Positions 6,122-59,666 are shown, counted from the stretch's first letter. The stretch: 61,570 nt of DNA from a virus (IMGVR_UViG_3300023223_000518:1-61570), one strand, 5' to 3'. Program-made: numbers and translations. The notes: generated by a model from the letters alone, not told the origin.

Positions 6122-7339
6122 ATGCCTGCGTTCGTCACGCTTTCCGGCGCAACTTCACCGATCCGGAGCGACAGACGAATGCCCTCGACATGCACATTCT
6201 GCGACGCGGAACACGATGCCGACTCGTGCGATAATTGCGAAACGCTCGCCGCGCTGTATGAAGACGATCGGCCGATCGCCGGCGGTGGCGACGTTCAATA
6301 CGGCTCGCGGCTCGCAGTGAAGCAACAGCTTGACGGCTCGGCGATGACAGCCGATTTCATCATCGTCACCCGACAGAACAACGAGCCGAATCTTCACGGC
6401 AACATGGTGCAGATCGGCAAGACGAAATTTGGTACAGGACTCGGTCTTTCCTATCATGAGATCGCGCGGCCCGTCTTATTGGAGCATGGATTCGACTTCC
6501 CGTTTCCAATCGGTGTGAGCGAAGATCAGCGTGGTAACTATTCGGTCAAGCGGCAAGGCTCAAAAACGGCGACGGCGACGGTCCGATTCTCGCAAGCCCT
6601 ACCTGAAGCGGAACTCGTGTTCGCGATGCTGGATGAGGGCACGATCCGGATGGCGTCGATTGGCTTCCGTATCCTGAAAGCAATGCGGCTTAAACAGACG
6701 CCGGCTCCGGCGCTTGAGGCCGGCGTCGAGGATTGGACGTTCGGTCGAGGGCACGATTTCGTTGAGACGCTCTTGCTTGAATGGTCGATCGTACATTCCG
6801 GAGCCGATGCCGGATCGCTGAGACAATGTCTTGATGCTGGCAAGGTGGGCACATGCCGTATTCCGGATACGTTGAAGAGATCATTCGAGCGATACGCAGC
6901 GACGACGCGGCCGCAAGGCATAGGCGTTGAATTCACCGGCAGTACAGACGACGCTCGGCGAACATTGGTCACACCGACAGCGCAGGCAAGGATTGCTCTC
7001 GACGAGATGGGTGTAACAATACCGGAGCCGCTCACACTGCGAACGCGCAGATTGACGCTCCGGATGAATTATCCGGAAGAATTGTGCGATACACCAGCGC
7101 TGACCGCCGCGCTGCAGGCGGAAGCCGATAGATTCGTAGCTGCGGAAGCCGCGAGGCTTGATCGGGAAATTCTCGTAGATTCCCCGAATGCGGTTGACAC
7201 GAATGAACCGAATGACTCAACTCAGCCCGTAGTGGAGATCGACGCCCTTACGATTGGTCAGTGTTTGGCCGCTTCAATCACGCCGGAGACCAAGCCGTCA
7301 TTCGGTTCGATTGGAGAAGAAATCGCATCATCGTTGTAG
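6122..7339 (+). CDS. prohead protease (HK97 family) with C-terminal scaffold-like extension
   Basis: Protease-like core (PVLLEHGFDFPFPIGV, ASIGFRILKA, LLEWSIVHSGADAGS). Sits directly upstream of the capsid gene. The start is uncertain. Confidence 0.7.
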   Translation: MPAFVTLSGATSPIRSDRRMPSTCTFCDAEHDADSCDNCETLAALYEDDRPIAGGGDVQYGSRLAVKQQLDGSAMTADFIIVTRQNNEPNLHGNMVQIGKTKFGTGLGLSYHEIARPVLLEHGFDFPFPIGVSEDQRGNYSVKRQGSKTATATVRFSQALPEAELVFAMLDEGTIRMASIGFRILKAMRLKQTPAPALEAGVEDWTFGRGHDFVETLLLEWSIVHSGADAGSLRQCLDAGKVGTCRIPDTLKRSFERYAATTRPQGIGVEFTGSTDDARRTLVTPTAQARIALDEMGVTIPEPLTLRTRRLTLRMNYPEELCDTPALTAALQAEADRFVAAEAARLDREILVDSPNAVDTNEPNDSTQPVVEIDALTIGQCLAASITPETKPSFGSIGEEIASSL

Positions 7340-11676: not shown

Positions 11677-11786
11677 TTCAGCGATTGGTTGAATGGCTGC
11701 GGTGCCGACGTGAGTCTCGCGCGAAAGAGAAGCGGCTCCGGCGTGACATCGACCAACTCCGGCGGATGCGAGATCGACGCAAATGA
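11673..11786 (+). CDS. small basic hypothetical protein (37 aa)
   Basis: ATGA-coupled at both ends. Confidence 0.3.
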   Translation: MIQRLVEWLRCRRESRAKEKRLRRDIDQLRRMRDRRK

Positions 11787-14567: not shown

Positions 14568-14586
14568 GCGCAACGAGATCGACAGG

Positions 14587-25616: not shown

Positions 25617-25755
25617 ATCGCGGTTTACAATCAAGGCGATATCGCATAAAGTGCTTCGCGCCGGATCAGCGGATGGGCCCAGCGTTGCTTGGCGAACCAT
25701 TCATGGATGGTAAGCGGCCTCAGGGTCATCCGTTGACCGGCTTTCGAGATCGACG

Positions 25756-29631: not shown

Positions 29632-29799
29632 ATGAATCGCTTCCCAGTTGACAAGACCGATGAGATCATGATTCCGATCGATAGGGAAAACGGCGAGAAG
29701 CTCGGCGTAGATATGAGATTTCCGAAAGACATTACGCCTGAAGAGTGGAACATCGTTATTGAACGGGCCTCGAAACGCATTGGGAATTTGCAGGAATGA
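29632..29799 (+). CDS. hypothetical protein (55 aa)
   Basis: Below the track cutoff. ATGA-coupled to 29796. Preferred over minus-strand ORF 29625..29978. Confidence 0.4.
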   Translation: MNRFPVDKTDEIMIPIDRENGEKLGVDMRFPKDITPEEWNIVIERASKRIGNLQE

Positions 29800-31019
29800 A
29801 AGAAATCGACGGGCTGTACTTTCCGGATGCCGACACGCACTTTGAGGAATTGTGCCGGCGGAAGGGAATCAAGGTCGCTCAGTATCAGACGGATCGGATT
29901 GCCGCGGCGATCGTCTATTCCCTTGACGTCGCCGGCTCCGATGTCTGCATTGAGGTCGGGGCTCACGTTGGCATCCATACACGATTACTTGCGGCACAAT
30001 TCAAGCAAGTCTACGCGATCGAAGCGCATCCGCTGAATTACGAATGCCTCGTGCGCAACACGCTGGACCTGGACAACGTTACCACGCTTGCGAGTGCGAT
30101 CACAGCCAAAGACGGCGAGACTCGGATTGATAACCCGGTTGATGGAAATACCGGCAACTTGCAGATAGGCGGCAACGGACCGCGAGTGCCGGGCGTGACG
30201 CTGGATTCGCTCGGGTTGCCGATCCCCGATCTATTGAAGATCGACGTGCAGGGTGCCGAACTGCGGGTACTGTCCGGAGCGCGGCGCTTGCTGATCGCTG
30301 GGTCTCCGGCCGTGCTTTTCGAAGAAGAACCGCCCGGCAAGTTGCGGCGAGCGCTTGCCAAGTCGAACGCGGCACAAACTTATCTCTTGAAACTCGGCGG
30401 CAAGATCGTATGGACGGCCGGAGCGGATGCGATCGCGACGTTTCCCGATGGAGCTTGGCCTTACACGAAATATTCGGAGCAAGGCGAGTACCATTGGAAG
30501 CATTACGAGAGCGGGAAATTCCGAGTGATTATCGATTGGGTCGGTTGCTATGTCGGATCGAAGAATCATGATTCCATCGTCGACATCGGATGCGGAGATG
30601 GTGTGTGGTCGGGCGTCATCAACCTGCATGCGTCTAATCTGGACGGCAAGACGCCGGCATTCGGAATCGACCGCGACACGAGAGCGATTCAATGCGCGAA
30701 ACAACGCAGCGTGCCGGTTCATGTCGGCTCAGCGCATCGACTGAGCAAATTCGATTTCGATGCCGCTCTGTTGGTAGATGTTTTGGAGCACATCCCGTGG
30801 CCCGAGCGTGTCATCGGTGATCTACGCCGCCGATCAATCCGCGACGTCTACGTGGTCAATCCGGACCCGAACGGATCACGCTGGCACATCAATGAATTTG
30901 AACAGGATGAAATGTCCGACGCGTTCGAACGGCAGGGATACCGTGTCGAGCGTCGCGAAGACTTCATCATAACGAGCCGAAATCACAAAACGTTTTTCCA
31001 TTTCAGACTGGACGAATAA
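29796..31019 (+). CDS. two-domain methyltransferase (FkbM-like + class I SAM-dependent)
   Basis: N-terminal domain has IEVGAHVGIHT...AIEAHPLNYECLVRN...LLKIDVQGAEL. C-terminal domain has IVDIGCGDGVWSG...LLVDVLEHI. Confidence 0.65.
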   Translation: MKEIDGLYFPDADTHFEELCRRKGIKVAQYQTDRIAAAIVYSLDVAGSDVCIEVGAHVGIHTRLLAAQFKQVYAIEAHPLNYECLVRNTLDLDNVTTLASAITAKDGETRIDNPVDGNTGNLQIGGNGPRVPGVTLDSLGLPIPDLLKIDVQGAELRVLSGARRLLIAGSPAVLFEEEPPGKLRRALAKSNAAQTYLLKLGGKIVWTAGADAIATFPDGAWPYTKYSEQGEYHWKHYESGKFRVIIDWVGCYVGSKNHDSIVDIGCGDGVWSGVINLHASNLDGKTPAFGIDRDTRAIQCAKQRSVPVHVGSAHRLSKFDFDAALLVDVLEHIPWPERVIGDLRRRSIRDVYVVNPDPNGSRWHINEFEQDEMSDAFERQGYRVERREDFIITSRNHKTFFHFRLDE

Positions 31020-39479: not shown

Positions 39480-39694
39480 ACGGTCACCATAAATGTCCTG
39501 TTGACGGATGCCAGCGGCTGATTAAGGATCGATTCGCATTCTGTCATACCCACTGGTACAAGCTGACTGACGACGAGCGTGCGGCTGTTTGGAGATCGTA
39601 TCACAAGCACGGAGCCGGCACGGCAGAGCACTTCGCTACGCTTAGCATGATGGCGGAGCGAATCGACCTACGGCAACGGAGATCGATTGGATGA
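39473..39694 (+). CDS. zinc-finger small protein (73 aa)
   Basis: Contains HHKCPVDGC...FCHTH. Confidence 0.5.
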   Translation: MLDGHHKCPVDGCQRLIKDRFAFCHTHWYKLTDDERAAVWRSYHKHGAGTAEHFATLSMMAERIDLRQRRSIG

Positions 39695-40509
39695 ATGATC
39701 AGAAACCCCACTTGAGCGCGACACAATTGAATCTGGCTTCGATGTGCGGAGAGGCATACCGCCGGCGATACATCGAAGGTGATAAGCTTCCGCCGGGCGT
39801 GGCGATGATTCGCGGCAAGAGCGTACATCATGCGGCCGCAGAGAACTTCACGCAAAAGATTGAATCTCACGAAGATTTGCCTCGAGCTGACATCGTCGAT
39901 CAAGCCGTTTCGAAATTCGATCTCGAATGCAAAGGCGGCTATGAACTCACTGGCGACGAGAAGGGCCGCAAGCCGGCGGATGTCCTGGACGATGCGCGCG
40001 ATGACGTTCGCGAGTTCGCCGATCTGCATGCACGGGATCAAGCGCCGGATTATCAACCGGCGTATGTGGAAGAACAGTTCCGGATCGAATTGCCGGGCTC
40101 GCACGACTTCGTCGGCATCATCGATCTGGCGACGGAAGACAAGACCGTTGCCGATCTCAAGACGACGAAGAAATCGCAGAATCAATCGGCCGCTGATCAA
40201 TCGGTTCAATTGACCGGCTATGCTGCCGGATACAAAGCGATCACCGGCGATCCGCCCAACCTTATTCAACTGGACGTTGCCGTCGTTCTGAAGACCAAGA
40301 CGAAGCGTGATGTTTTCAAGACGCATCGCACGCCCGCGGACTTCGCGGAACTCGCGGCGCGCACGAACGCACTGATCGGTGCGATCCAAGCCGGTGTCTT
40401 CATTCCGATCGAACCGAACCATTGGAAGTGTTCGGAGAAGTGGTGCGGATTTCATGCCACTTGTCCATATACGCAAGGCGTGCGGAGCCGTGCAACGCAA
40501 AACGACTGA
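39691..40509 (+). CDS. PD-(D/E)XK nuclease, Cas4/RecB-like exonuclease
   Basis: Contains GIIDLATEDKTVADLKTTKKS, QLTGYA, an N-terminal MCGEAY and a C-terminal CSEKWCGFHATC Cys cluster. GGAGATCGAT (39678-39687) lies 3 nt upstream of the ATG. Confidence 0.7.
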   Translation: MNDQKPHLSATQLNLASMCGEAYRRRYIEGDKLPPGVAMIRGKSVHHAAAENFTQKIESHEDLPRADIVDQAVSKFDLECKGGYELTGDEKGRKPADVLDDARDDVREFADLHARDQAPDYQPAYVEEQFRIELPGSHDFVGIIDLATEDKTVADLKTTKKSQNQSAADQSVQLTGYAAGYKAITGDPPNLIQLDVAVVLKTKTKRDVFKTHRTPADFAELAARTNALIGAIQAGVFIPIEPNHWKCSEKWCGFHATCPYTQGVRSRATQND

Positions 40510-41441: not shown

Positions 41442-41521
41442 CGACGAGCATGAAATGAGATATCGTTTCGAGCGGCGAAAGCGCCGCTCATCTCTTACAC
41501 CTGATTCAAGGGAGATCGACC

Positions 41522-43390
41522 ATGAATCAACCCATCGATTCTGAAGTTGTTGAGAAGACAGAGATCATTCCAGATGCGATCTTGCAGGCCAGAGCGCTAG
41601 CGGAACTGCCCCCGAATCTCGCAATGATCCGGATGGAGAATGATCAAATATTCTCGCTTGCCGCGGCGCATCCCCGCAATCACGAAGCGATCAAAGCAGA
41701 TATTGTTGCGCAATTGATGGCGTATCCGTCGTTCGCACAAGCGGCCGTCTATCAGAAGCCGGTGGGAACAAAGCCGGCGACGTGCCGGAAATGCCAAACG
41801 GAGATGTCGGTAAAAAAGGGCGATCCACCTCCGAAGCAATGCGCGAAGCCGGGATGCGAGAGCACGAGCATCGACCCCGGTGGAATGCAGTACGCGAGCG
41901 GTTTATCGATTCGAGCCGCGGAAGCGCTCGCGGCGGCTTATGGATTCAATAGCATCGAAGCCGACGAAGAAATCATCGACGACGATCATGTCAAAGTGAC
42001 CGCGACGTTCATTGACTACCAGCGCGGCCGTCGATGGAAAGACTCCGGAATCGTCTCGAAAGTATTCCGCGGCGCTGGCGGGACGATGCGGCGTCATTCT
42101 GACGATCGCTTCCATTCGATCGTGATCAAAGCGGAGAAATCGAGGCGCATCCGCGAAGTGGTATCGCGGAGCGTTCCGCCGGGGCTGCGTGAAGAACTCC
42201 TGATCTGCGCTCGACGGCAAGCGATGACGCTTCTCACTGATGAAGTCGTTGAACAAATCGTGAATTACTTTGCCGGCAAGGGCGTCACGCTGGAACAGGT
42301 CGAATCGCATCTCGGTAAGTACCGGAAAGACTGGACCAAAGATGATCGAGCGACGCTCGCCGCGATCAAGACCGCCGTGGAAGACGGCGATACCTCTATC
42401 TGGGAAGTTTTCGAGCGAGATGATCAGCCCGGCAACGGAGGATCGAAGCAACCGCCCGGCGACGTCAAGCCGGAATCATTCGAGAATCCGAAGAACGGCG
42501 GAACGACGCCGGGCCGATCGATAATGTGGAAGTGTTTCACTTGCACATTTGAGTTCACATCAGACACACAGCCGAAAGGTTGCCCCGAATGCGGAGAGAT
42601 CGATTGTCGCGTCGCGGCAGCGGACTCCAAGACGCCGGTGGATTCGTCCGATGCATCCGCCCCATCCGGCGGAGATCGCGTCGAGACAGCCGCACAAGAG
42701 CCGGAGCGGGTCGCAATTTCGCTCGGCTCGCAACCTCCGGTATTTCCGACCAAAAAGCAATTCGTCAAGGATGCCGCGCGGCTCGTGCGGCTTGGGTTGC
42801 CTCAATTCGAGATCGACGGGAAGCTGAAAGCCGTCGAGTACATCGCCGAGTATGGCCGTCTGTGGCGTTTGGTCTCAGGAGCGACTGAACCATCGGCTCC
42901 GGAACGGCAAGCCGATCCTGATGCATCCTCGCAAGCCTCAGAGCAAACCGCGGAGACGCCGGACGCAGGGCACACAACTGATGTTGCTCGCGAGCGGGCT
43001 GATGATGCAAAAGCGCAATCTGATAACGATCGATTCTGGGAAGAAATCGGGGAATCGAACACGGGGCATCAACTCGACCATATTGCAGATATGGCGTATG
43101 AATCATTTGGGTCGACTGAGATGCGATCGATCGACGGACCGGAACATACAGCAATCATCACAGCGATCGCCGCGCGACGCGGAGACTTGCTCGCCGCGGA
43201 ATCCCCGAAAGGCACATCCGATCTGGCCGACATCGCCGCGTTCCGCGAAGCAATCAAGACGGCCAGCAAATCACAACTGCAGACGATCCAACAAGAAACG
43301 AATCGGGCATTGCAAGACAATCGGCTCGACATGTTAGGATTCACGGAAGCGATGACTCTGATCGACAAACGAAAGAAAGCGTTGAGGTAG
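41522..43390 (+). CDS. large DNA-metabolism protein, possible single-strand annealing protein with zinc-ribbon insertions and acidic tail
   Basis: 622 aa. GGGAGATCGAC (41510-41520) lies 1 nt upstream of the ATG. RecT-like impression around GLSIRAAEALAAAYGF. Neighbours an exonuclease and RusA. The function call is weak. Confidence 0.35.
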   Translation: MNQPIDSEVVEKTEIIPDAILQARALAELPPNLAMIRMENDQIFSLAAAHPRNHEAIKADIVAQLMAYPSFAQAAVYQKPVGTKPATCRKCQTEMSVKKGDPPPKQCAKPGCESTSIDPGGMQYASGLSIRAAEALAAAYGFNSIEADEEIIDDDHVKVTATFIDYQRGRRWKDSGIVSKVFRGAGGTMRRHSDDRFHSIVIKAEKSRRIREVVSRSVPPGLREELLICARRQAMTLLTDEVVEQIVNYFAGKGVTLEQVESHLGKYRKDWTKDDRATLAAIKTAVEDGDTSIWEVFERDDQPGNGGSKQPPGDVKPESFENPKNGGTTPGRSIMWKCFTCTFEFTSDTQPKGCPECGEIDCRVAAADSKTPVDSSDASAPSGGDRVETAAQEPERVAISLGSQPPVFPTKKQFVKDAARLVRLGLPQFEIDGKLKAVEYIAEYGRLWRLVSGATEPSAPERQADPDASSQASEQTAETPDAGHTTDVARERADDAKAQSDNDRFWEEIGESNTGHQLDHIADMAYESFGSTEMRSIDGPEHTAIITAIAARRGDLLAAESPKGTSDLADIAAFREAIKTASKSQLQTIQQETNRALQDNRLDMLGFTEAMTLIDKRKKALR

Positions 43391-43877: not shown

Positions 43878-44277
43878 ACAGATCACTTTCGATCTACCGT
43901 TTCCGCCGAGTGTGAATCATTATTACAAGATGGTCATACTTGGAGCCCGCGGCCGGAAACACTGAGAACTTGCATTGAGCGACGCCGGTAAGTTGTACCG
44001 GGATCAATGCATTGTCGCGATCTGGGATCAATTCGGACCCATCACAAAACCACTGCGCCAAAAAGTTCGCATCATCGTCGAAGCGATCGCTCCGGATCGG
44101 CGGGAAAGAGACCTCGATAATTGTTGGAAAGCTCTGCTGGATGCTATCACCGCGGCGAATGTGTGGGCCAGCGATTCGCTCATAAGTGACGAGCGGATGT
44201 TTTGGAGCGGAATCGAGAAGCCCGGCAAGATGATCATAACGATCGAGGAAATCATTGAAGCGGATACGCTGTTCTGA
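43849..44277 (+). pseudogene. rusA: RusA-family Holliday-junction resolvase interrupted by an in-frame TGA (43963-43965): pseudogene, assembly error or recoded
   Basis: N-terminal ITFDLPFPPSVNHYY...RGRKH, then TGA, then in the same frame ELALSDAGKLYRD...RERDLDNCWKALLDAI...DSLI. Both halves match E. coli RusA (ITLPWPPSNNRYY..RGRTHVSAEGQAYRD...RRRDLDNLQKAAFDAL..DDAQV). Confidence 0.65.
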
Positions 44278-44397: not shown

Positions 44398-44592
44398 ATG
44401 GATGCTGACGTCTGGCGCTGGATTGCTTTAATCGTGACAATAGTGGCCGCAACGTGGCGGTTGTCGTCGATGCTTGCCGGGATCAGAACTGAACTGGAAG
44501 TGCATCGTGCGCAGATCGATGGTAGGCTGAATGCGCACGAGGAGAAACTGACAGATCATAGTTCAAGGCTCGGCAGATTCGAAAGCGGCTGA
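44398..44592 (+). CDS. small membrane/coiled-coil protein (64 aa)
   Basis: TM helix WRWIALIVTIVAATW. TGATG coupling to the methyltransferase gene. Confidence 0.45.
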   Translation: MDADVWRWIALIVTIVAATWRLSSMLAGIRTELEVHRAQIDGRLNAHEEKLTDHSSRLGRFESG

Positions 44593-45974
44593 TGGCAAAA
44601 AAGAAAGCGAAGAAAGCGCCGGCATCCCGCCCGAAGCGAGTGTCGCTGGATTCGCTGAAGCCGACGCCACGGAACGCTCGCATACATCCGGATCGGAACC
44701 GCTCCGATCTTGCCGCGAGCGTGAAGGAATTCGGAGCCGCCCGATCTGTCGTCATGGATGGCGACGGGCACATTCAAGCCGGAGCCGGCGTGTTGGAAGC
44801 GGCCGTGGAAGCCGGCATCACGGAAGCGATCATCGTACCGGCAGATGGCAAGACGCTTGTGGTCGTCGAGCGCTCCGATCTGAAAGGCAAGCGCGCCGAC
44901 GCATACGGCATCGCCGACAACAAAACCGGCGAGTCGAGCGAATGGAATGAGGACCAACTTCGCGAGACGATGACGGCGCTCGCCGATGACGGGATGGCGA
45001 ACGCCACCGGGTTTGATGAAGCGGAACTCGCCGCGCTCTTCGCGCCGACCGACGTAGTGCAGGATCCAGTTCCCGACCCGCCAAAGACGCCGATAACGAA
45101 GCCGGGTGACCTCTGGATTCTCGGCGATCATCGTTTGCTGTGTGGGGATGCTACGCGGGGGGAGGATGTCGAGCGGGTGATGGGTGGGGAGCGGATCAAT
45201 GTAGCGTTCACATCTCCACCGTACGCGAATCAGCGCAAGTACGATGAGACGAGCGGGTTTAAGCCGGTCGCAGCCGAAGATTACGTCGAGTGGTGGGAGC
45301 CGATTCAGGCCAACGTCGCGGCACACATTGCGGATGACGGTTCGTTCTTCGTGAATATCAAGCCGCATTGCGAGGACGGTGGGCGCGTGCTGTATGTGAT
45401 CGACCTCGCGCTCGCTATGTGCCGGGGTTGGGGGTGGACGCTGATTGACGAACTGTGCTGGAAACGCAAGGGTGTTCCTGGCGGGTGGGAGTATCGGTTC
45501 AAAAATGAGTTTGAGCCGGTCTATCACTTCGCAAAGGAAAAGCCGAAGTGCGACAAGTTCGCAGTTGCGACGCGAGGCACAACGTTCACAGTATCGGCTG
45601 ACAATCGGAAGCGACCCAGCGTCGGCGGTAAGTCGGTGTTCGACTGCAACAGCGAGAACCAAAAGGATGAATTTGAAGGGCTCGTCTTGCCGGGGAATGT
45701 CGTTGAGATCAACGGTGAGACGGAGTCGGAACATAACGCCGCATTCCCCGTTGGGCTGCCAGCGTGGTTCATGACAGCGTTCAGCGCATCCGGCGACAAC
45801 GTCTTCGACCCGTTCGTAGGTTCCGGCACAACCCTGATCGCCGCCGAGCAATTGGGCCGGACGTGCTACGCGATGGAAATCAGCCCCGCGTATTGCGACG
45901 TCTCGGTTAAACGCTGGGAAGCCCTCACCGGGAAAAAAGCAAAGAAAGAAAGAAAAACTCGGAAGCGGCGTTGA
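44592..45974 (+). CDS. ParB-like nuclease domain fused to beta-class N6A/N4C DNA methyltransferase
   Basis: ParB/Srx-like N-terminus (LKPTPRNARIHP...IQAGAGVLEAAVEAG). FTSPPY is motif IV, and it precedes VFDPFVGSGTT (motif I). Confidence 0.8.
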   Translation: MAKKKAKKAPASRPKRVSLDSLKPTPRNARIHPDRNRSDLAASVKEFGAARSVVMDGDGHIQAGAGVLEAAVEAGITEAIIVPADGKTLVVVERSDLKGKRADAYGIADNKTGESSEWNEDQLRETMTALADDGMANATGFDEAELAALFAPTDVVQDPVPDPPKTPITKPGDLWILGDHRLLCGDATRGEDVERVMGGERINVAFTSPPYANQRKYDETSGFKPVAAEDYVEWWEPIQANVAAHIADDGSFFVNIKPHCEDGGRVLYVIDLALAMCRGWGWTLIDELCWKRKGVPGGWEYRFKNEFEPVYHFAKEKPKCDKFAVATRGTTFTVSADNRKRPSVGGKSVFDCNSENQKDEFEGLVLPGNVVEINGETESEHNAAFPVGLPAWFMTAFSASGDNVFDPFVGSGTTLIAAEQLGRTCYAMEISPAYCDVSVKRWEALTGKKAKKERKTRKRR

Positions 45975-46047
45975 CGTGCGGCACGAATGCCGATATCTTA
46001 AATCATGTAAGAGTTACTTCCACACCGCTTAAACAGGACTGACGCAA

Positions 46048-46221
46048 ATGAATCTCGAATCGTGTTACCGATTGTTTTTGTGCGGAATCCGCGGCGATCG
46101 TAAAAGCTGGCGAACAATAATCGAAGTGAATGGGCACAATGTACGCCATGCGATGAAACGCGCTGGCGTCCGTCCATCCAATGTTGTTTCATGGTACAGG
46201 CGAGACGTCTGTCTTATCTGA
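46048..46221 (+). CDS. small Cro/XRE-like HTH protein (57 aa)
   Basis: Below the track cutoff. Lies in a visibly AT-richer gap. NVRHAMKRAGVRPSNVVSWYRRD resembles an HTH recognition segment. Confidence 0.4.
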   Translation: MNLESCYRLFLCGIRGDRKSWRTIIEVNGHNVRHAMKRAGVRPSNVVSWYRRDVCLI

Positions 46222-46320
46222 ACGCCGCGGTGTGTGGAAGTGCCGCTCGACCCGTGCCGGCGATCAGTCCCGCCGGCGCGGGGAGGCGTTTTTCAGGACT
46301 CACCCTAAGGGAGATCGACA

Positions 46321-46512
46321 ATGGATGTTCGCGAAGCGATTCGAACCGCGAAGACGCTGGCCAAGACAACCGACAGCCCGCATACAGTTTGGAGATGCGG
46401 CGACGCCTATGCTGTTAGCGCTGGCGACGACAAGCCCGACCTCGACGCCCATGACGGGCCAGTGCGACCGGTTGCCGGTTATGACCCAGATGGAACGGAG
46501 CATCTCGGATGA
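46321..46512 (+). CDS. hypothetical protein (63 aa)
   Basis: GGGAGATCGAC (46309-46319) lies 1 nt upstream of the ATG. Preferred over the overlapping long track ORF 46181..47419. Confidence 0.5.
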   Translation: MDVREAIRTAKTLAKTTDSPHTVWRCGDAYAVSAGDDKPDLDAHDGPVRPVAGYDPDGTEHLG

Positions 46513-46531
46513 ACATCTGGAGAGATCAACG

Positions 46532-47419
46532 ATGAGAATCAAGTATCTGAAGTGGAACGCGAGCGCTAGTTCGCTCACGATTGTGGACAAGGCCAATGAG
46601 ATCATCGAAGAATACGCGGAACAAGGTTACGACCTCACGCTGCGGATGCTCTACTATCAGTTCGTCTCTCGCGACATGATCCCGAACACTCAAGAGAGCT
46701 ACGGACGGCTCGGCTCGATTATCACGAAGGCCCGCGATTCCGGCATGATCGATTGGGATGTGATCAAAGATAGGGGCCGCTCGCTCTACGGTCACACACA
46801 CTATCCGGACGGAAGCACGTTCGTCAGATCGTTTGCAAATCGATTTCATTCCGATTTGTGGCAAGATCAAGACCGGCGCATTCAAGTGTGGGTCGAAAAG
46901 GAAGCGTTAGCCGATGTCGTCGCGCGAGCAGCGAACGCATGGGACGTAGATTATTTTGCGTGCAAGGGCTATATGAGCGCGTCGTCGATCTGGGAAATGG
47001 GCCGCTGGATGGTTCGCATGGGCGGCGATTGGCTTGTGTTGCACCTTGGCGATCACGACCCGAGCGGCATCGACATGTCGCGCGACATCGAAGAACGGCT
47101 CAGGAGATACACGACACCACTGGATGATGAAGAGCGGCCGAATCTGGAAGTTCGCCGAATCGCGCTCAATATGGATCAAGTTGAACAGTACGATCCGCCC
47201 CCGAATCCGGCGAAAGTCACCGATAGCCGAGCGGAAAAGTACATCGACGAATACGGTGATTCATCGTGGGAACTCGACGCGCTGGAACCGTCTGTGATCG
47301 TCGATCTGATCAGTGAGCATATCGAAGCTGAGATCAGCGATCGTGAGGCATTCGAAGCGCAACAGGAATTCCAATCAGCGACGCGTGAGAAGTTGAGTAA
47401 ACTACGAGTGAGAGTTTGA
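46532..47419 (+). CDS. Top6A/Spo11-like (Topo 'Mini-A'-like) winged-helix + Toprim protein
   Basis: 295 aa. TLRMLYYQFVS matches the Spo11 R-D-I-F-Y catalytic-Tyr motif. QVWVEKEALADVV carries the Toprim Glu. LHLGDHDPSGIDM carries the DxD. The variant motif GGAGAGATCAAC lies 1 nt upstream of the ATG. Confidence 0.6.
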   Translation: MRIKYLKWNASASSLTIVDKANEIIEEYAEQGYDLTLRMLYYQFVSRDMIPNTQESYGRLGSIITKARDSGMIDWDVIKDRGRSLYGHTHYPDGSTFVRSFANRFHSDLWQDQDRRIQVWVEKEALADVVARAANAWDVDYFACKGYMSASSIWEMGRWMVRMGGDWLVLHLGDHDPSGIDMSRDIEERLRRYTTPLDDEERPNLEVRRIALNMDQVEQYDPPPNPAKVTDSRAEKYIDEYGDSSWELDALEPSVIVDLISEHIEAEISDREAFEAQQEFQSATREKLSKLRVRV

Positions 47420-47455
47420 CCGCTTTTCTTTTCTCTTGACCTTGGGAGATCGACC

Positions 47456-49063
47456 ATGGACTACGAACAAGAACCCGACGACAATTATTCCCGACACGAT
47501 CCACTCACAGCGAAGTTCGAAGGGCTGGCCGCGGCCGGCTCCGATCTGGAATTTGAATTCCCACCAGGTGGAGGAGTCGTCATCGTTCAGGGGCCGAATG
47601 GATGCGGGAAGTCAGAGATTTTGCATCATGCTCAAGTGGTGTTATCCGGCGACGGCAAATTGAACAAGCGCGACAAAGCGAAGACCGGCTCTGCGGAGAT
47701 CGCCGGCCGCAAGTTAGTCGTGAAGAAACTCACGCGCACGACTGGCGACCTGGAAGTTGAGGGCGTTGGCGATCTGGACATCGGCGTCCTGCATTCCCCG
47801 GGCAAGATCGATCCGGTAGCGAGTGATTCGATCCGCATCAAAGCGCTCGTGCGGCTTTCGAAAGTGGCCGCGGAGATCGATCAGTTCTACCGGCTCGCCG
47901 GCGGAGAAAAGGCGTTCGACGAACTCGTTGACGCATCGGCTCGCGAGAAGACCGATCTTGTTGAGATGGCCGGATTGGTCAAACGCGGATTCGAATCGGA
48001 AGCGCGCAGACATGCGAAGACCGCCAAGACCGAAACGCAATCCGCCGTCGCGCTCCGCAAATCAATCGAGAACATCGATCTGACCGCTCCGCACGGCTAT
48101 CAACTCCGGCTCGATTGGGAAGCCGCGCACGAAGCGAAGACCCGGATCGTGACGCAGAGGGAGCAATCGGACTCCGCTGCTCCGCTGATCGAATCGGCAA
48201 GGCGAAAACTCGCAGAGTTCGCGGTCAAGGTGAACAGCGAAGCGGATGCGAAAGCGGAAGCGGCCGCGCTAAAGCTTGACGAAGCGGATGAGCAAGTCGA
48301 GCGATGCGAAGCGGCATTGACTTCCGCGAAAACGAAGCGCGCACTCGCGGAAGCGGCCGCGGATGACGCCAATCAAGCGATGCGTCAAGCGGCCGATGCT
48401 AAAAAGGGTTGCGAGGATTTAAACGCGGACATCTCCGAACTCGAAAGCCGGCCCCGCCCCACCGATGATCTGATCTCTCAGGTCGAGTCTAACGCCACGG
48501 ATGCACGGGCTGTATACGATGCTGGAATCTTGATCGATGCCGCTATGGTGACTGCTGCGCAAGCCGCGGAGCATGAATCCAAAGCCGCCGCGATGACCCG
48601 GGATGAATTGCAATGGCGACAGGCTGCGCTTGCCTGTTCGGAGATTCTCGCTGATGCTGTGCGTGAGATTCCGAATTGCCTGCTGACTGTCACAACGACC
48701 ATAGACGGGGATGATCGCTTGACGATCGCGACGCCGCGGAGCGATGAGACGATGTTCAATGACCTCTCTGACGGCGAGCGCTGGGGGCCGATCATTCCGC
48801 TTGCGGCCGGAGCCGATCGCGTGATCGTGCTTCCGCAATCCGCCTGGGAGGGGCTCGACCCGGATAACCGGCAAGTCGTTTACGAGTTGTGCCGGGAGAA
48901 TCATTGCTGGATCGTGACGGCGCAAGCCGCGGCCGGCCAGATGCGGGCCGTTTGCTATGATCCGAATGCGGACATGATCGAATGCGGCCCATGCTCGGAA
49001 GCCGGCGGGGCAGATATGCCTGTCTATCATCTTCCGCCGGAATGCAAAACGATTGAGGTGTGA
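47456..49063 (+). CDS. Rad50/SbcC/SMC-like ABC ATPase with central coiled coil
   Basis: GPNGCGKSE is Walker A. About 250 aa of A/E/K-rich coiled coil follow. LSDGERW is the signature motif, then RVIVLPQSAWEGLD is Walker B/D-loop-like. GGGAGATCGAC (47444-47454) lies 1 nt upstream of the ATG. Confidence 0.65.
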   Translation: MDYEQEPDDNYSRHDPLTAKFEGLAAAGSDLEFEFPPGGGVVIVQGPNGCGKSEILHHAQVVLSGDGKLNKRDKAKTGSAEIAGRKLVVKKLTRTTGDLEVEGVGDLDIGVLHSPGKIDPVASDSIRIKALVRLSKVAAEIDQFYRLAGGEKAFDELVDASAREKTDLVEMAGLVKRGFESEARRHAKTAKTETQSAVALRKSIENIDLTAPHGYQLRLDWEAAHEAKTRIVTQREQSDSAAPLIESARRKLAEFAVKVNSEADAKAEAAALKLDEADEQVERCEAALTSAKTKRALAEAAADDANQAMRQAADAKKGCEDLNADISELESRPRPTDDLISQVESNATDARAVYDAGILIDAAMVTAAQAAEHESKAAAMTRDELQWRQAALACSEILADAVREIPNCLLTVTTTIDGDDRLTIATPRSDETMFNDLSDGERWGPIIPLAAGADRVIVLPQSAWEGLDPDNRQVVYELCRENHCWIVTAQAAAGQMRAVCYDPNADMIECGPCSEAGGADMPVYHLPPECKTIEV

Positions 49064-49127
49064 GGTCGACCGTCCGCTTTTTCGACCGACCCTATGATAC
49101 GATCGACAACCCTACGGAGATCGACCG

Positions 49128-49436
49128 ATGAAACCACAGAGAGTTGTGTTGAAGCGGGTAAAGGGATATCGCAAGCCGGCCAGCGCGCGAGCGGTAACGC
49201 GATCAACATTCTTCGGTAATCCGTTCATCGGTGAAGGCGCGCTCTATTGGTTCCGATACTGGATCAAGCGGCCGCGATTGTCGGTTCTCCAAGTTGAAAC
49301 CGTGATGGAGCGAAGCGCCGGCCGCTATGATGTGCCCCCGGGGCTTGTGTCGCTGTCCTACAAGACACCGCGGCTGAAAGCCGGCGAATATATCCGGCGA
49401 GCCCGAGAGGAATTAAGGGGCAGTCCCTTAGCCTGA
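49128..49436 (+). CDS. DUF4326-like protein (GNPF motif)
   Basis: Contains VTRSTFFGNPF. GGAGATCGAC (49116-49125) lies 2 nt upstream of the ATG. Confidence 0.4.
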   Translation: MKPQRVVLKRVKGYRKPASARAVTRSTFFGNPFIGEGALYWFRYWIKRPRLSVLQVETVMERSAGRYDVPPGLVSLSYKTPRLKAGEYIRRAREELRGSPLA

Positions 49437-49510
49437 TGGTGCCATGAATCGCGTGAGTGTCACGCTGATATTCTAATTGAACTCGTGAATCATACCGAGA
49501 TCGACTGACG

Positions 49511-50227
49511 ATGCCGAGTAAGCGACCACGCAAGGGCCGATGCGGAGCGAAACTCCGAAAGAAGCCCGGGCAGTTCTGTTTGGCGTGGCCGATCCGCGGT
49601 ACGAAGCGATGCCGGCTCCACGGCGGATTGACCCCCTCCGGCTTCGCGTCGCCTCACTTCAGACACGGTAAATATTCACGACATCTCAGCGGTGCATTCG
49701 CTGAAGCATTCGCCACCCGGCTTGATGATCCGGAGTTGCTTTCGCTCCGCGATGATATCGCGATCGCTGATACCCGATTGCTGGAACTCGTCGGGCAAGC
49801 CCAAAGCGATTCGAGCGCGGCGAATTGGAAGCGATGCGGCGAATTGGTTCGTGAGTACGATCGGATCAAAGCAGACACGATCGAAGCGACAGAGAAGTAC
49901 AAGTTGCAGGCTCCGATCATGGTAGAGTTGTGGTCGTTGATCTATGCCGGAGAGATCGCCGAACAGAAATGGGAGGAAGCGAGAAAACAGAATCTGTTCA
50001 AAAGCCGGCTGATCGACTCGGAACGTAAGCGGATGGTCGAGGCCGGGTTGATGATCGCAATCGATGATGCCCGCGGATTGGTTGCGAATTTGTGCCATCT
50101 GATAAGAGATCACGTGCATGACCCTGAAATCCTCACGCTACTTAGCGACGGCATCGCTCGAATTACTGGAGAGCGACGCAACGCGATTGTTGAGGCCGAC
50201 CCCGGAAACGGGAAAGAGCGAGATTGA
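49511..50227 (+). CDS. putative terminase small subunit
   Basis: Basic N-terminus with CGAK...CRLHGG. Directly upstream of and overlapping the large terminase. GAGATCGAC (49497-49505) lies 5 nt upstream of the ATG. Confidence 0.4.
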   Translation: MPSKRPRKGRCGAKLRKKPGQFCLAWPIRGTKRCRLHGGLTPSGFASPHFRHGKYSRHLSGAFAEAFATRLDDPELLSLRDDIAIADTRLLELVGQAQSDSSAANWKRCGELVREYDRIKADTIEATEKYKLQAPIMVELWSLIYAGEIAEQKWEEARKQNLFKSRLIDSERKRMVEAGLMIAIDDARGLVANLCHLIRDHVHDPEILTLLSDGIARITGERRNAIVEADPGNGKERD

Positions 50228-54312: not shown

Positions 54313-54776
54313 ATGAGCGAGACCGAGAGCGAGTCGAGCGAATCGCACGGCAAGAGGCGATGAAGGCTTACGAAGCCGGCAAAAGTGATCGCGAATACAA
54401 TCTCAGCTTGATCCTTGACGCCGTCGACGATCCGCTTATGTGGGTCGTCGTTTGGAGCGGCGAATTTGACGATCACCCATTCATGATCACGTGCTTGATG
54501 GCCCGCGCTCCACATGCGAAATTGGAAGCGCGCGGAGGCCCAACTAACCTCGGTATCCTGTTGGTCCGGAAATCTGATTTCGGGCCGCTCGATATGGCGT
54601 TGCTATTCCGCTCGTTTGACTTCTGGCCCATCCATGATCTGAAGCGGATGGCCGATGTTCTGACTGATCGCGCCTTCATCCCGCTGTGCCGATCCACTTC
54701 CGTTCCACGTTCCCTTGAGGCTGAAACGTCATTCGCCTCGTTTCTCAAATCCATTCGATCGGAGTTAAATGCATGA
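54309..54776 (+). CDS. hypothetical protein (155 aa)
   Basis: ATGA-coupled ATG at 54309. Confidence 0.5.
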   Translation: MNERDRERVERIARQEAMKAYEAGKSDREYNLSLILDAVDDPLMWVVVWSGEFDDHPFMITCLMARAPHAKLEARGGPTNLGILLVRKSDFGPLDMALLFRSFDFWPIHDLKRMADVLTDRAFIPLCRSTSVPRSLEAETSFASFLKSIRSELNA

Positions 54777-55588
54777 CCTACTTCCGCGGCCGCAAGAACG
54801 GCAGGAGTTGGCGAATCGACGTCGCCGACGTATTGACGTGGAAACCCGCGAACTCGAAAACACCGCGGCTGATCTTCGGAGACCCGCCGTTCAACATCGG
54901 CCAGCAATACGACGAGCATGATGACAAGATGTCAGAAGGTGACTATCAGCGCTTCACGAATGGATGGGTCGCTCGGGTGCGATCTCTCGCCGGTGTTGAT
55001 GGATGCATCATCGCGTTGCATGTGCCGTGGCAGTTGACCGGCTTCGTGAAGCGGATCGCCGGGCAAGGGCTGGAACAGATCGCGGAATTGATCATTCATT
55101 ACCGCTTTGGTCAATGCGGCCGCTCGAATTGGATTGGCGGGCATTCGCATTGCCTGATCTTCAAGTCACCCGGCGAGCATAGATGGAACCCCGACGCCGT
55201 GCTTGTGCCCTCTGACCGCGCGACGACGTATGCGGACAAACGCATTGACGATACCGAGCGGGGCGGCGAGCGGCTTCCCTGTGACGTGTGGGGCATTCCC
55301 AGCGACGGGCCGTACTGGGGTCGGGTTCAGGGCAACGATGGCGAGCGATGGTGCATCAAGACGGGCGGTCTCGTCGATCATCCGAATCAGTTACGGGAAT
55401 TGTATCTAGCCCGGTTGATCAGAGCGTACACTGACCCCGGCGATCTCGTACTTGATCCCTTCGTGGGATCGGGAACCACTGGCGTTGTGGCGATCGCTCT
55501 GGGGCGAACCTTCCGCGGCTGTGAGATCGGCGAGCGGACGGCCGCAAGCGCAGCAAAGCGGATTAAGAAAGGAGCGGTGAGATTATGA
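54773..55588 (+). CDS. beta-class N6A/N4C DNA methyltransferase
   Basis: FGDPPFN is motif IV, and it precedes VLDPFVGSGTTG (motif I). Confidence 0.8.
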   Translation: MTYFRGRKNGRSWRIDVADVLTWKPANSKTPRLIFGDPPFNIGQQYDEHDDKMSEGDYQRFTNGWVARVRSLAGVDGCIIALHVPWQLTGFVKRIAGQGLEQIAELIIHYRFGQCGRSNWIGGHSHCLIFKSPGEHRWNPDAVLVPSDRATTYADKRIDDTERGGERLPCDVWGIPSDGPYWGRVQGNDGERWCIKTGGLVDHPNQLRELYLARLIRAYTDPGDLVLDPFVGSGTTGVVAIALGRTFRGCEIGERTAASAAKRIKKGAVRL

Positions 55589-57383: not shown

Positions 57384-57635
57384 ATGGCGAAAGAGAAGAA
57401 ACTGAAACAGCGACTTGAAGACGCGGAAGCTGATCATGCGGAACAGTGCCTCCAATACGAAACGAAGCTTGAACAACGAGAACGCAGAATCGAACTTCTC
57501 GAATTAGAAATCGTTCATCTTGAGGTGATCACCTCACGCTACAAGAGCGCGGCAGTCGCGGCCGACTATGGATCGCAGGCGGAGGGCGTGGCGTTGCGAC
57601 GGACTTTGGAAGACCATACAGACGGCAAATCATGA
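57384..57635 (+). CDS. coiled-coil protein (83 aa)
   Basis: ATGA-coupled to the portal gene. Confidence 0.45.
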   Translation: MAKEKKLKQRLEDAEADHAEQCLQYETKLEQRERRIELLELEIVHLEVITSRYKSAAVAADYGSQAEGVALRRTLEDHTDGKS

Positions 57636-59502: not shown

Positions 59503-59666
59503 TGATCCTTTTTCTTACGATTCTGGTCGTGTCTCTTATTGTGGTCATGGCCGGATGGTTCGAACGCAAGTGGAGCGGCGACGGTAGCACCGGAGCTGCA
59601 AGCATTGCGGCAAACATCGTCGCTCTCCTCGCCATCATCGCCAGCGTCGTATGCATCGTATTATGA
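59502..59666 (+). CDS. small two-TM membrane protein (54 aa)
   Basis: Below the track cutoff. TGATG- and ATGA-coupled. Product MILFLTILVVSLIVVMAGW...IVALLAIIASVVCIVL. Confidence 0.4.
   Translation: MILFLTILVVSLIVVMAGWFERKWSGDGSTGAASIAANIVALLAIIASVVCIVL

Follow-up and report, generated by a model that had tools for sequence, protein, structure and literature searches.

A Mini-A Top6A/Spo11-like protein and an SMC/Rad50-fold coiled-coil protein encoded side by side in a phage genome

We asked whether a stand-alone Top6A/Spo11-like protein and the coiled-coil P-loop protein encoded directly downstream of it form a DNA-cleavage system, as had been proposed from the sequence of the locus. The genes lie in the viral DNA IMGVR_UViG_3300023223_000518:1-61570 (the window, 61,570 nt in full length), and the region studied spans positions 46,321-49,436. 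Both main ORFs and the two small ORFs flanking them are present as described in the original prediction (Table 1), with the intergenic gap measuring 36 nt rather than the 37 nt given there. Because this gap is short, the genes share a strand and no terminator lies between them, Mini-A and the SMC-like gene are almost certainly co-transcribed in this phage. Terminator-like sites are not more frequent in the region than shuffled expectation, and the hairpin upstream of the 63-aa ORF is weak evidence. The phage encodes three methyltransferases, and its presumed lack of a replicase holds insofar as no polymerase, primase or helicase was recognised among its scanned ORFs.

Table 1. Positions of genes and motifs in the window, in order along the sequence
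Feature	Position	Strand	Size or details
PD-(D/E)XK exonuclease	39691..40509	+	PDDEXK_1 9e-20; phrog_69
phrog_3657-like protein	41522..43390	+	622 aa; phrog_3657 3.5e-20
RusA Holliday-junction resolvase	43975..44277	+	PF05866 3.8e-7
ParB-N-terminal / N6_N4 DNA methyltransferase fusion	44592..45974	+	PF01555 1.9e-33; phrog_498, ParB-like PHROGs
Terminator-like hairpin + T-run	46268..46293	+	within 346-nt gap 5' of 63-aa ORF
63-aa orphan ORF, 5' of Mini-A	46321..46512	+	
Mini-A gene	46532..47419	+	295 aa
Mini-A RxxYY, R38-M-L-Y41-Y42	46643..46657	+	R38, Y41, Y42 invariant in 50 homologues
Mini-A Toprim glutamate, E122	46895..46897	+	invariant in 50 homologues
Mini-A DxDxxG metal-binding motif, D174-H-D176-P-S-G179	47051..47068	+	all six residues invariant in 50 homologues
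Mini-A T2BI box, W246-E-L-D-A-L251	47267..47284	+	invariant in 50 homologues
SMC/Rad50/RecN-fold coiled-coil P-loop protein gene	47456..49063	+	535 aa
Walker A, G46-P-N-G-C-G-K-S53	47591..47614	+	GxNGxGK[ST] kept in 154/155 family representatives
Antiparallel coiled coil, residues 168-403	47957..48664	+	~236 aa; apex near 281-289
ABC signature, L437-S-D-G-E-R442	48764..48781	+	S438, G440 invariant; E441 in 138/155
Degenerate Walker B + D-loop, V456-I-V-L-P-Q461-S462-A-W-E-G-L-D-P469	48821..48862	+	
GNPF (FFGNPF) ORF, weakly DUF4326-like	49128..49436	+	102 aa

The Mini-A protein

The upstream ORF is a Mini-A, a stand-alone Top6A/Spo11-like protein and an ordinary member of the known family of stand-alone type IIB topoisomerase A subunits (Takahashi et al. 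2020, NAR Genom Bioinform, PMC7671362). It combines a partial 5Y-CAP with a Toprim domain and matches phrog_6247 'DNA topoisomerase' over 288/295 residues (E 7e-102). Homologues occur in 78 cultured phages, and more than 8000 metagenomic ones, 294-345 aa long, are among the matches listed; those of cultured Microbacterium, Rhodobacter, Pseudomonas PaMx25-like and Xylella phages are 41-51% identical to the protein. Together with the invariant motifs and the Top6A fold matches described below, this bears out the identity originally predicted.

All three segments on which that prediction was built (TLR38MLY41Y42Q, VWVE122KEA and GD174HD176PSG179) are present, and an alignment of 50 homologues confirmed that the catalytic tyrosine and the Toprim metal ligands are retained. 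In the AF2 model (pLDDT 91), the RxxYY motif sits in helix 37-46, E122 directly follows beta-strand 115-121 and DxDxxG comes after beta-strand 166-172; this placement of the acidic residues at strand ends is the one expected for Toprim. Y42 is the predicted catalytic tyrosine, with an R+4 spacing whose counterpart in M. jannaschii Top6A is R99/Y103. The motif has been defined as R-x-x-[Y/F]-Y (PMC7671362). A fourth motif that had previously gone unmentioned, SW246ELDAL251, was also observed. This xWELDAL T2BI box sets Mini-A apart from Topo VI and Topo VIII and was suggested to gate the tyrosine (PMC7671362), a role it may also play here.

Foldseek searches with the model returned Top6A structures as all five top PDB matches (probability 0.94-1.0), the best being 1d3y_B (4e-4), 9o8p and 9o0g. 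A Top6B/GHKL partner had been reported missing. In agreement, Pfam scans detected neither a GHKL/HATPase domain in Mini-A or the flanking ORFs nor a GHKL B subunit among the scanned ORFs of this phage.

By analogy with Top6A/Spo11, a Mini-A homodimer would cut DNA using Y42 and Toprim-bound Mg2+ (E122, D174, D176) through a 5'-phosphotyrosyl intermediate and without an ATPase partner. Judging from homology and context, its substrate is most likely phage replication or recombination DNA, in which it would make or reseal breaks that feed recombination-dependent replication.

The SMC/Rad50-fold protein

The Rad50/SMC-type fold suggested for the second gene was recovered by structure prediction (pLDDT 79) and Foldseek. 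Matches in the PDB comprised the Smc head, Rad50, LmuB, JetC, RecN and AriA, with E-values of 1e-7 to 1e-4 for Smc, Rad50, LmuB, JetC and RecN, while the matches in BFVD were small SMC/Rad50-type proteins of phages, the best at 6e-13. In Pfam, AAA_23 matched below threshold (1.4e-5). As modelled, the 535-aa protein is a member of the SMC/Rad50/RecN structural superfamily at the level of fold only.

The head is a split ABC domain, with Walker A in its N-terminal part, signature and D-loop in its C-terminal part and the coiled coil inserted between them. Walker A (GPNGCGKS, 46-53) and the LSDGER signature (437-442) are found as predicted, and the latter aligns with LSGGE/Q of OpuCA, FtsE, LolD and Rad50. 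The coiled coil, initially estimated at ~250 aa, is likewise present and spans ~236 aa in the model; it is built from helices 168-203, 215-281, 289-330 and 337-403, with ~115 residues per arm. A CxxC zinc hook is absent, with one Cys located near the apex (270-300: ...EQVERCEAAL...).

A Walker B-like segment does exist (VIVLPQS), but it lacks the Asp-Glu pair. In alignments with OpuCA, FtsE and LolD, with which that of Rad50 agrees, Q461 falls at the position of the Walker B Asp and residue 462 at that of the catalytic Glu. Position 461 is Gln in 154/155 family members, while position 462 is Glu in 64/155, Asp in 15/155 and Ser in this phage. The H-loop His is absent (the region reads T-A-E / T-A-Q), and the N-terminal half of the family holds no conserved Q-loop Gln. 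Because Gln replaces the Walker B Asp and Ser occupies the position of the catalytic Glu, robust ATP hydrolysis by this copy is doubtful. From its motifs, the protein probably binds nucleotide, engages its heads and hydrolyses poorly; since both canonical acidic residues are missing, 'ATPase' may be a misnomer for it.

Exhaustive HMMER searches revealed a family of at least 1184 clusters (E<1e-30), carried mostly by Planctomycetota and located in early regions of phages and prophages. Recurrent neighbours are YqaJ (23 loci), the phrog_3657 family (16 neighbourhoods including that of this phage), RecT (9 plus 5 loci), PD-(D/E)XK nuclease (6 loci) and RusA (6-7 loci). Homologues of the PD-(D/E)XK exonuclease and of RusA of this phage were found in six and seven SMC-like loci, respectively, and in none of the Mini-A loci. 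An Mre11/SbcD metallophosphoesterase was found neither among the neighbours in this phage nor among the recurrent neighbour families of the SMC-like loci clustered. On the grounds of homology and context, we infer that the protein may serve as an ATP-binding tether of DNA ends or duplexes that aids exonuclease/annealase recombination. This large unnamed family, in which a Gln is conserved where Walker B normally has Asp and which is tied to Planctomycetota-phage recombination modules, may merit separate study.

Linkage of the two genes

A survey of gene neighbourhoods had been put forward as a test of the pairing, and in it the two genes never co-occurred elsewhere. Both were present in 0/42 other Mini-A loci and 0/88 loci of the SMC-like family (130 loci), in samples that are biased because Mini-A loci were seeded with peptides of this phage's protein and the IMG/VR and GTDB SMC-like loci with the consensus motif PQ[ED]AWEG. 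HMM searches of six-frame ORFs contributed 37 Mini-A and 87 SMC-like loci without overlap; five further Mini-A loci and a sister phage, inspected over +-10 kb, gave the same result.

The sister phage is the nearest relative of this one; its contig is 78% identical in TerL, 53-56% in orf238 and 53% in the SMC-like protein. Both phages share the gene order phrog_3657-like, RusA, [variable], SMC-like, [variable], orf238, TerL, and the SMC-like gene occupies the same backbone position in each. It belongs to the backbone of the lineage. Upstream of it, after RusA, comes a variable accessory slot that holds Mini-A and the ParB/N6_N4 methyltransferase fusion. The sister phage has no Mini-A within 10 kb and carries an HNH endonuclease and small ORFs in the corresponding slot, while a 262-aa ORF replaces the GNPF ORF. 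With both genes in none of 130 loci and a sister phage devoid of Mini-A, the proposed cleavage system is not supported. Most likely, these are two independent genes set side by side by mosaic phage evolution and not a two-component system.

Mini-A also lacks other constant companions. Each neighbouring family is limited to at most 3 of 38 loci (about 40 loci surveyed). Pfam scans of 98 and 134 ORFs beside Mini-A yielded mixed helicases, Cas4-like nucleases, PolA and ligase, among which SMC or AAA_23 proteins did not recur. The Mini-A genes of cultured phages lie in replication and recombination modules. The closest homologues with context (67-59% identity) do not adjoin such an SMC-like gene; the very closest (65-70% identity) come from 2-3 kb contigs, which offer little context. 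Drawn from about 40 loci and over 200 ORFs beside Mini-A, these data add evidence that no partner of Mini-A is conserved. An ATPase regularly paired with it would have filled the place of the missing 'Mini-B', and the candidate in this phage is not that. The absence is consistent with Mini-A acting alone, and SPO11 dimers are reported to act in vitro without a partner (PMC11922746).

The small flanking ORFs had been considered possible members of the unit, an idea that found no support. The 63-aa ORF has no match in Pfam, PHROG, PADLOC or NCBIfam and no homologue in 95 loci, and the GNPF ORF is absent from all Mini-A and SMC-like loci compared. Its assignment as DUF4326-like is based on a weak match that falls under the threshold (E 0.0036, 18 bits versus a cut-off of 25; phrog_464 4.6e-4). 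The start element GAGATCGAC noted at both ORFs is real. However, 17 exact copies exist on the plus strand, 13 of them 0-5 nt before an ATG, and this phage-wide occurrence at gene starts means that it does not mark a unit.

We next weigh readings in which the two genes would have a joint or different purpose. It is improbable, in our view, that the locus serves conflict, with Mini-A directed against host or competitor DNA while the methyltransferase protects the phage, and/or the SMC-like protein acting as a decoy or inhibitor of host SMC machines (SbcCD, Wadjet, Lamassu), by analogy with lambda Gam in the Red operon. The HNH endonuclease in the sister phage's Mini-A slot would fit, as would the Gln of the SMC-like family and the location of its gene, which in recombination operons takes the place typical of Gam-like functions. 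Within the clade of at least 59% identity (this phage, L038, L131, L132, L040/41), a methyltransferase lies at most two genes from Mini-A. This link is partly synteny common to related phages, however; it is absent from 33 more distant Mini-A loci, and N6_N4 appears in only 3/134 neighbour ORFs, all from loci of the near clade. Methyltransferases are moreover common here, as the three in this phage illustrate. Mini-A has no PADLOC match and the SMC-like protein only P-loop-level matches, and Mini-A of cultured phages is embedded among ligase, Sak4, polymerase and helicase genes.

We give slightly less credence to a lineage-specific coupling in which Mini-A would make protein-linked double-strand breaks that the SMC-like protein and the exonuclease/annealase/RusA set tether and process, a Spo11 plus Rad50-like axis starting recombination-dependent replication in a phage without a recognisable replicase. 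The close spacing on one strand, the shared early region with the PD-(D/E)XK exonuclease and RusA, the lack of a polymerase, primase or helicase among the ORFs scanned and a Mini-A 2-4 kb from YqaJ-RecT-RuvC in another locus (L128) speak for it. Against it stand the lack of co-occurrence in the other 130 loci, the sister phage that carries the whole module without Mini-A, the association of Mini-A with many unrelated replication systems, the loss of catalytic acidic residues from the SMC-like copy and the failure to find an Mre11/SbcD-type nuclease to remove the tyrosyl adduct. Less probable again is that Mini-A was recruited beside a Rad50-shaped clamp and exonuclease/annealase/RusA as a minimal 'programmed break plus recombination' set replacing a replicase; the Q-for-D protein would then be a non-hydrolysing end tether. 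The coupling is not conserved, and any functional interaction may be specific to this lineage. It is very improbable that Mini-A nicks or cuts an origin to prime rolling-circle or break-induced replication. Such a role has been proposed for the skuldviruses, viruses of Asgard archaea without other replication genes, and would be in keeping with a phage in which no replicase was recognised among the scanned ORFs. However, complete replication modules are present in many phages with Mini-A, and the sister phage has the same backbone without Mini-A, which therefore is not an essential initiator of the lineage.

Comparison with known systems

The likeness of the locus to Wadjet, OLD, Gabija and PARIS is superficial and consists of an SMC/ABC-fold gene adjoining a Toprim gene. 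As the original prediction had already observed, kleisin and KITE subunits are missing, and Mini-A does not match JetD. Wadjet/MksBEFG was rejected, given 535 aa versus ~1100 aa with a hinge for the JetC/MksB SMC, about half the size. PADLOC gave no match for Mini-A or either small flanking ORF; for the SMC-like protein, JetC matches (E 1e-3 to 0.09) cover P-loop or coiled coil only, and JetC, LmuB, AriA and PtuA models match through the P-loop only (E>=3.7e-4). OLD/Gabija/PARIS modules were rejected on a P-loop-only AriAB match (E 0.0019), no match for Mini-A and the 0/130 linkage; unlike in these modules, Mini-A keeps its CAP tyrosine and the pair is not conserved.

With Rad50/SbcC, RecN and small phage SMC-like proteins, the second protein shares the split ABC head with an inserted antiparallel coiled coil, and size and fold match BFVD phage proteins of 450-570 aa. 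It differs from Rad50/SbcC in the Gln that its family carries instead of the Walker B Asp, in Ser462 and the missing H-loop His of this copy, and in lacking a conserved Q-loop Gln, a zinc hook and an adjacent Mre11/SbcD. The usual neighbours of its family are instead exonuclease, RecT and RusA genes. As the catalytic ABC set, zinc hook and Mre11/SbcD are all absent, a canonical Rad50/SbcC-Mre11/SbcD complex was rejected.

Mini-A resembles Top6A/Spo11 in its CAP-like helix with the catalytic Tyr and its Toprim domain, with 1d3y_B and M. mazei Topo VI A as best matches, and differs in having no B subunit. A profile search of the PDB detected no sequence similarity to Top6A/Spo11, and TM-scores reach only ~0.3-0.36 because the domain orientation differs. 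A Topo VI / Topo VIII holoenzyme was rejected, as the neighbouring protein has an ABC/SMC and not a GHKL fold. The closest correspondence is with the Mini-A subfamily itself (PMC7671362), which shares the ~300 aa, RxxYY, Glu, DxDxxG, xWELDAL, the viral origin and the lack of a nearby GHKL 'Mini-B', and from which this copy differs in nothing of substance. It belongs to a widespread phage family that, among stand-alone proteins, is the one most closely related to Spo11/Top6A.

Test for co-occurrence of the Mini-A and SMC-like genes

The original prediction had joined the Spo11/Top6A-like Mini-A and a Rad50/SMC-like ATPase into a paired DNA-cleavage system; both protein identities held up, but the proposed two-gene system is not supported. 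All four ORFs in question (orf63, Mini-A, the ATPase and the GNPF ORF) were found as described, and each motif quoted for them is present in the sequence. We collected Mini-A loci from cultured phages, IMG/VR (29 loci) and contigs of the closest metagenomic homologues (67-47% identity), and ATPase-family loci from the closest homologues, IMG/VR (54 loci) and GTDB genomes (31 loci), the latter two sets being gathered with an 18-sequence alignment. All six-frame ORFs of these loci, whose flanks had medians of 6-8 kb, were searched with HMMs. Among 42 Mini-A and 88 ATPase loci outside the window none carried both genes, a lack of co-occurrence that the prediction itself had named as refuting it.

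The most informative comparison is with a sister phage (62.9-kb contig) whose identity to the window is 78% for TerL, 53-56% for orf238, an ORF between the ATPase region and TerL, and 53% for the ATPase. Its gene order runs from a PD-(D/E)XK exonuclease through a 620-aa phrog_3657-like protein, RusA and an HNH ORF with five small ORFs to the ATPase, which is followed by ORFs of 262 aa and 82 aa, orf238 and TerL. In the window, the ParB-methyltransferase, orf63 and Mini-A lie between RusA and the ATPase, and the GNPF ORF lies between the ATPase and orf238. Because the sister phage keeps the gene order and differs in these two slots, the ATPase is a backbone gene with a variable slot on either side, one of which carries Mini-A as cargo. 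Homologues of orf63 and of the GNPF ORF were found in none of the collected loci.

The ATPase family keeps company with phage recombination and early genes. In about 59 neighbourhoods, the window counted in, we found a YqaJ exonuclease (23 loci), a CsrA-like small protein (20), the phrog_3657 family, to which a window ORF belongs (16), a replisome-organiser-like protein (13), RecT (9 plus 5), a PD-(D/E)XK nuclease (6) and RusA (6-7). For three genes of the window, the exonuclease, the phrog_3657-like protein and RusA, homologues turned up in ATPase loci only and in none of the Mini-A loci. No neighbour family of Mini-A occurred in more than 3 of 38 loci, and Pfam scans of 98 large and 134 same-strand ORFs nearby returned a shifting set of helicases, Cas4-like nucleases, PolA and ligase, among which no SMC-like protein recurred. 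Searching the literature for an SMC-like protein partnered with RecT/YqaJ modules, or for recombination genes of planctomycete phages, turned up nothing of relevance. Most carriers of the ATPase family belong to Planctomycetota, with members in Pirellulaceae (among them the complete genome of strain SH449), Planctomycetaceae and Phycisphaerae, which suggests this phylum as host of the window phage. Early regions of these presumed planctomycete phages and prophages often contain small CsrA-like genes.

The phrog_3657-like protein measures 622 aa in the window versus the usual ~380 aa, and neither Pfam nor the PDB sequences gave a match to it. It typically occupies the place in which one would look for a RecT or Erf annealase; our guess is that it could be a single-strand annealing protein so far overlooked.

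Fold and family of the two proteins

The Mini-A protein has no match in Pfam, NCBIfam or PADLOC and matches phrog_6247 ('DNA topoisomerase') over its full length (E 7e-102). Homologues occur in 78 cultured phages at 41-51% identity, most commonly of Pseudomonas, Xylella, Salmonella, Flavobacterium, Brevundimonas, Roseobacter, Xanthomonas and Microbacterium, and more than 8000 metagenomic homologues, a lower bound, were found at E<1e-10. Mini-A proteins were defined as ~300-aa A-subunit homologues of viral origin, lacking the N-terminal CAP part and any Mini-B, with the motifs RxxY/FY, Glu plus DxDxxG and a C-terminal xWELDAL box (Takahashi et al., 2020; PMC7671362). The window protein carries R38-M-L-Y41-Y42, E122, D174-H-D-P-S-G179 and S-W246-E-L-D-A-L251, and all these motif residues are invariant in an alignment of 50 homologues. 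The AF2 model (pLDDT 91) places Y42 within a helix and E122 and the DxD at beta-strand ends. Its top five PDB fold matches are all Top6A, including 1d3y_B (E 4e-4) and the M. mazei Topo VI A subunit; a Mini-A sequence profile did not reach Top6A among PDB sequences, which was recovered by fold comparison only. Motifs, phrog_6247 and fold agree on a Top6A/Spo11-like Mini-A, as had been proposed.

The predicted SMC/Rad50 type of the second protein is likewise borne out by its AF2 model (pLDDT 79), in which N- and C-terminal head halves are linked by four long helices (168-403), and by Foldseek. Matches in PDB were the Smc head, Rad50, LmuB, JetC, RecN and AriA (E 1e-7 to 1e-4), and those in BFVD were small phage proteins (450-570 aa) labelled 'SMC' or 'Rad50/SbcC-type AAA' (to 6e-13). 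Pfam returned AAA_23 only, below threshold, and no model above threshold for the family as a whole. PADLOC/NCBIfam matches were weak (mad3, LmuB, JetC, AriA, PtuA, ASRP), those to LmuB, AriAB and PtuA being limited to the P-loop. Family members weakly reach PHROG 1499, annotated as of unknown function, and the window protein matches no PHROG. A word-indexed search had given 7 relatives, and again the same 8 proteins with an 81-sequence family profile, but this apparent rarity was overturned by an exhaustive HMMER search, which found at least 1184 clusters (50% identity) at E<1e-30; the best 150 of these are mostly full-length, about 480-530 aa. In 50,697 cultured phages, tblastn gave no match to either the window ATPase or a typical member of its family.

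Among 155 family representatives, Walker A (GxNGxGK[ST]) and the signature (LSxGERW) are conserved, and the Walker B site reads hhhh-P-Q-x-A-W-E-G-L-D-P. The Gln is present in 154 representatives and is followed by Glu in 64 and Asp in 15; the H-loop region is T-A-[E/Q], without His. Ungapped spacing to the D-loop aligns Q461 with the Walker B Asp and residue 462 with the catalytic Glu, and HMMER alignments to OpuCA, FtsE, LolD and T. maritima Rad50 give the same placement. Residue 462 is Ser in the window ATPase and Pro, Ala or Ser in its nearest relatives. From this alignment-based placement of Q461 and Ser462 we infer that the protein would bind nucleotide and engage its heads with weak or no hydrolysis.

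Neither the sister-phage homologue nor any other family member has the Cys-containing C-terminal tail of the window ATPase. The tail is modelled at pLDDT <50 and may serve, as a small appendage, in metal binding or interaction.

Genome layout and start element

Nearly all genes of the 61.6-kb tailed-phage genome lie on the + strand. Those up to about 29 kb are presumably structural, and early genes span 29.8-49.5 kb. The gap before orf63, one of few sizeable intergenic stretches in the early region, may be a transcription boundary.

Coordinates of features in the window and in collected comparison loci (L-numbers)
Feature	Position	Strand	Length	Remark
orf63	46321-46512	+	63 aa	
Mini-A ORF	46532-47419	+	295 aa	
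ATPase ORF	47456-49063	+	535 aa	start 36 nt past Mini-A stop
Gln-bearing Walker B site	48821-48841			ATPase residues 456-462
ATPase C-terminal tail	48986-49063			residues 511-535, ...ECGPCSEAGGADMPVYHLPPECKTIEV, three Cys
GNPF ORF	49128-49436	+	102 aa	FFGNPF within
TerL	at 50118			
Portal	at 57632			
Head morphogenesis gene	at 59651			
Probable major head protein	6122-7339			weak match
Non-coding gap	45975-46320		346 nt	ParB-methyltransferase to orf63
Hairpin	46268-46293			GC-rich, with T-run; inside gap
phrog_3657-like	41522-43390; L005 598-2460; L093 2534-3700			
Methyltransferases	29796-31019; 44592-45974; 54773-55588			window
Methyltransferases near Mini-A	44592-45974; L038 4238-5266; L131 1820-2827; L132 3184-4185; L040 6583-7131			
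CsrA-like genes	L008 5597-5797; L038 10300-10560; L129 1629-1820			examples
GAGATCGAC copies, window	46311-46319; 47446-47454; 49117-49125; 49497-49505; 41512-41520; 25746-25754; 14575-14583; 11770-11778			examples
GAGATCGAC copies, L005	587; 5990; 8485			

The shared start element, earlier read as a hint that orf63 and the GNPF ORF may belong to the unit, is real but occurs genome-wide. The 9-mer GAGATCGAC, which contains GATC, is found ahead of the start codons of orf63, Mini-A (with 1 mismatch), the ATPase, the GNPF ORF and orf238, and of about a dozen other genes; this rules it out as a marker of a Mini-A/ATPase unit. Exact + strand copies sit 0-5 nt before an ATG in 13 of 17 cases, and at up to one mismatch there are 93 matches versus 41±6 in shuffles. 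It recurs in the sister phage, is rare or absent in the other collected loci, and is a property of gene starts throughout this lineage. Its distance from the start codon is too short for a classical Shine-Dalgarno site, so it may have a part in translation start or regulation that is specific to the lineage.

Possible roles and comparison with known proteins

The analysis establishes family membership, conserved catalytic residues, folds and absence of linkage; beyond that, we would picture Mini-A acting alone, probably as a dimer, in Mg2+- and tyrosine-dependent breakage and rejoining of DNA, with replication or recombination DNA as its probable substrate. The SMC-like protein could be an ATP-binding tether or clamp that aids exonuclease/annealase recombination.

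The window phage has three methyltransferases, one of which carries a ParB-like N-terminal domain as a fusion. Matches to DNA-methyltransferase families were obtained for the ORFs at 44592 and 54773, and that at 29796 matches a general methyltransferase PHROG only. In the window's Mini-A clade (≥59% identity) a DNA methyltransferase lies at most 2 genes from Mini-A; these enzymes are N6_N4 or MT-A70, of several unrelated types, and none was seen near Mini-A in 33 more distant loci. A methyltransferase-Mini-A cassette was rejected on these grounds and left as a weak lead; the proximity could stem from a hotspot or from a functional link within the clade. Conflict roles are improbable, whether Mini-A is pictured as a nuclease paired with a methyltransferase or the SMC-like protein as a decoy of the Gam type. 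Slightly less probable still is a functional coupling of Mini-A and the SMC-like protein in this lineage only, where the two genes are adjacent; they share no other collected locus. Mini-A as a replication initiator is very unlikely, as the sister phage lacks it.

The Glu and DxD of the modelled Mini-A are predicted to be placed at strand ends as in Toprim, and the window protein adds one member to an already known family. The SMC-like family, in which Gln takes the place of the Asp of Walker B, represents a variant not described before.
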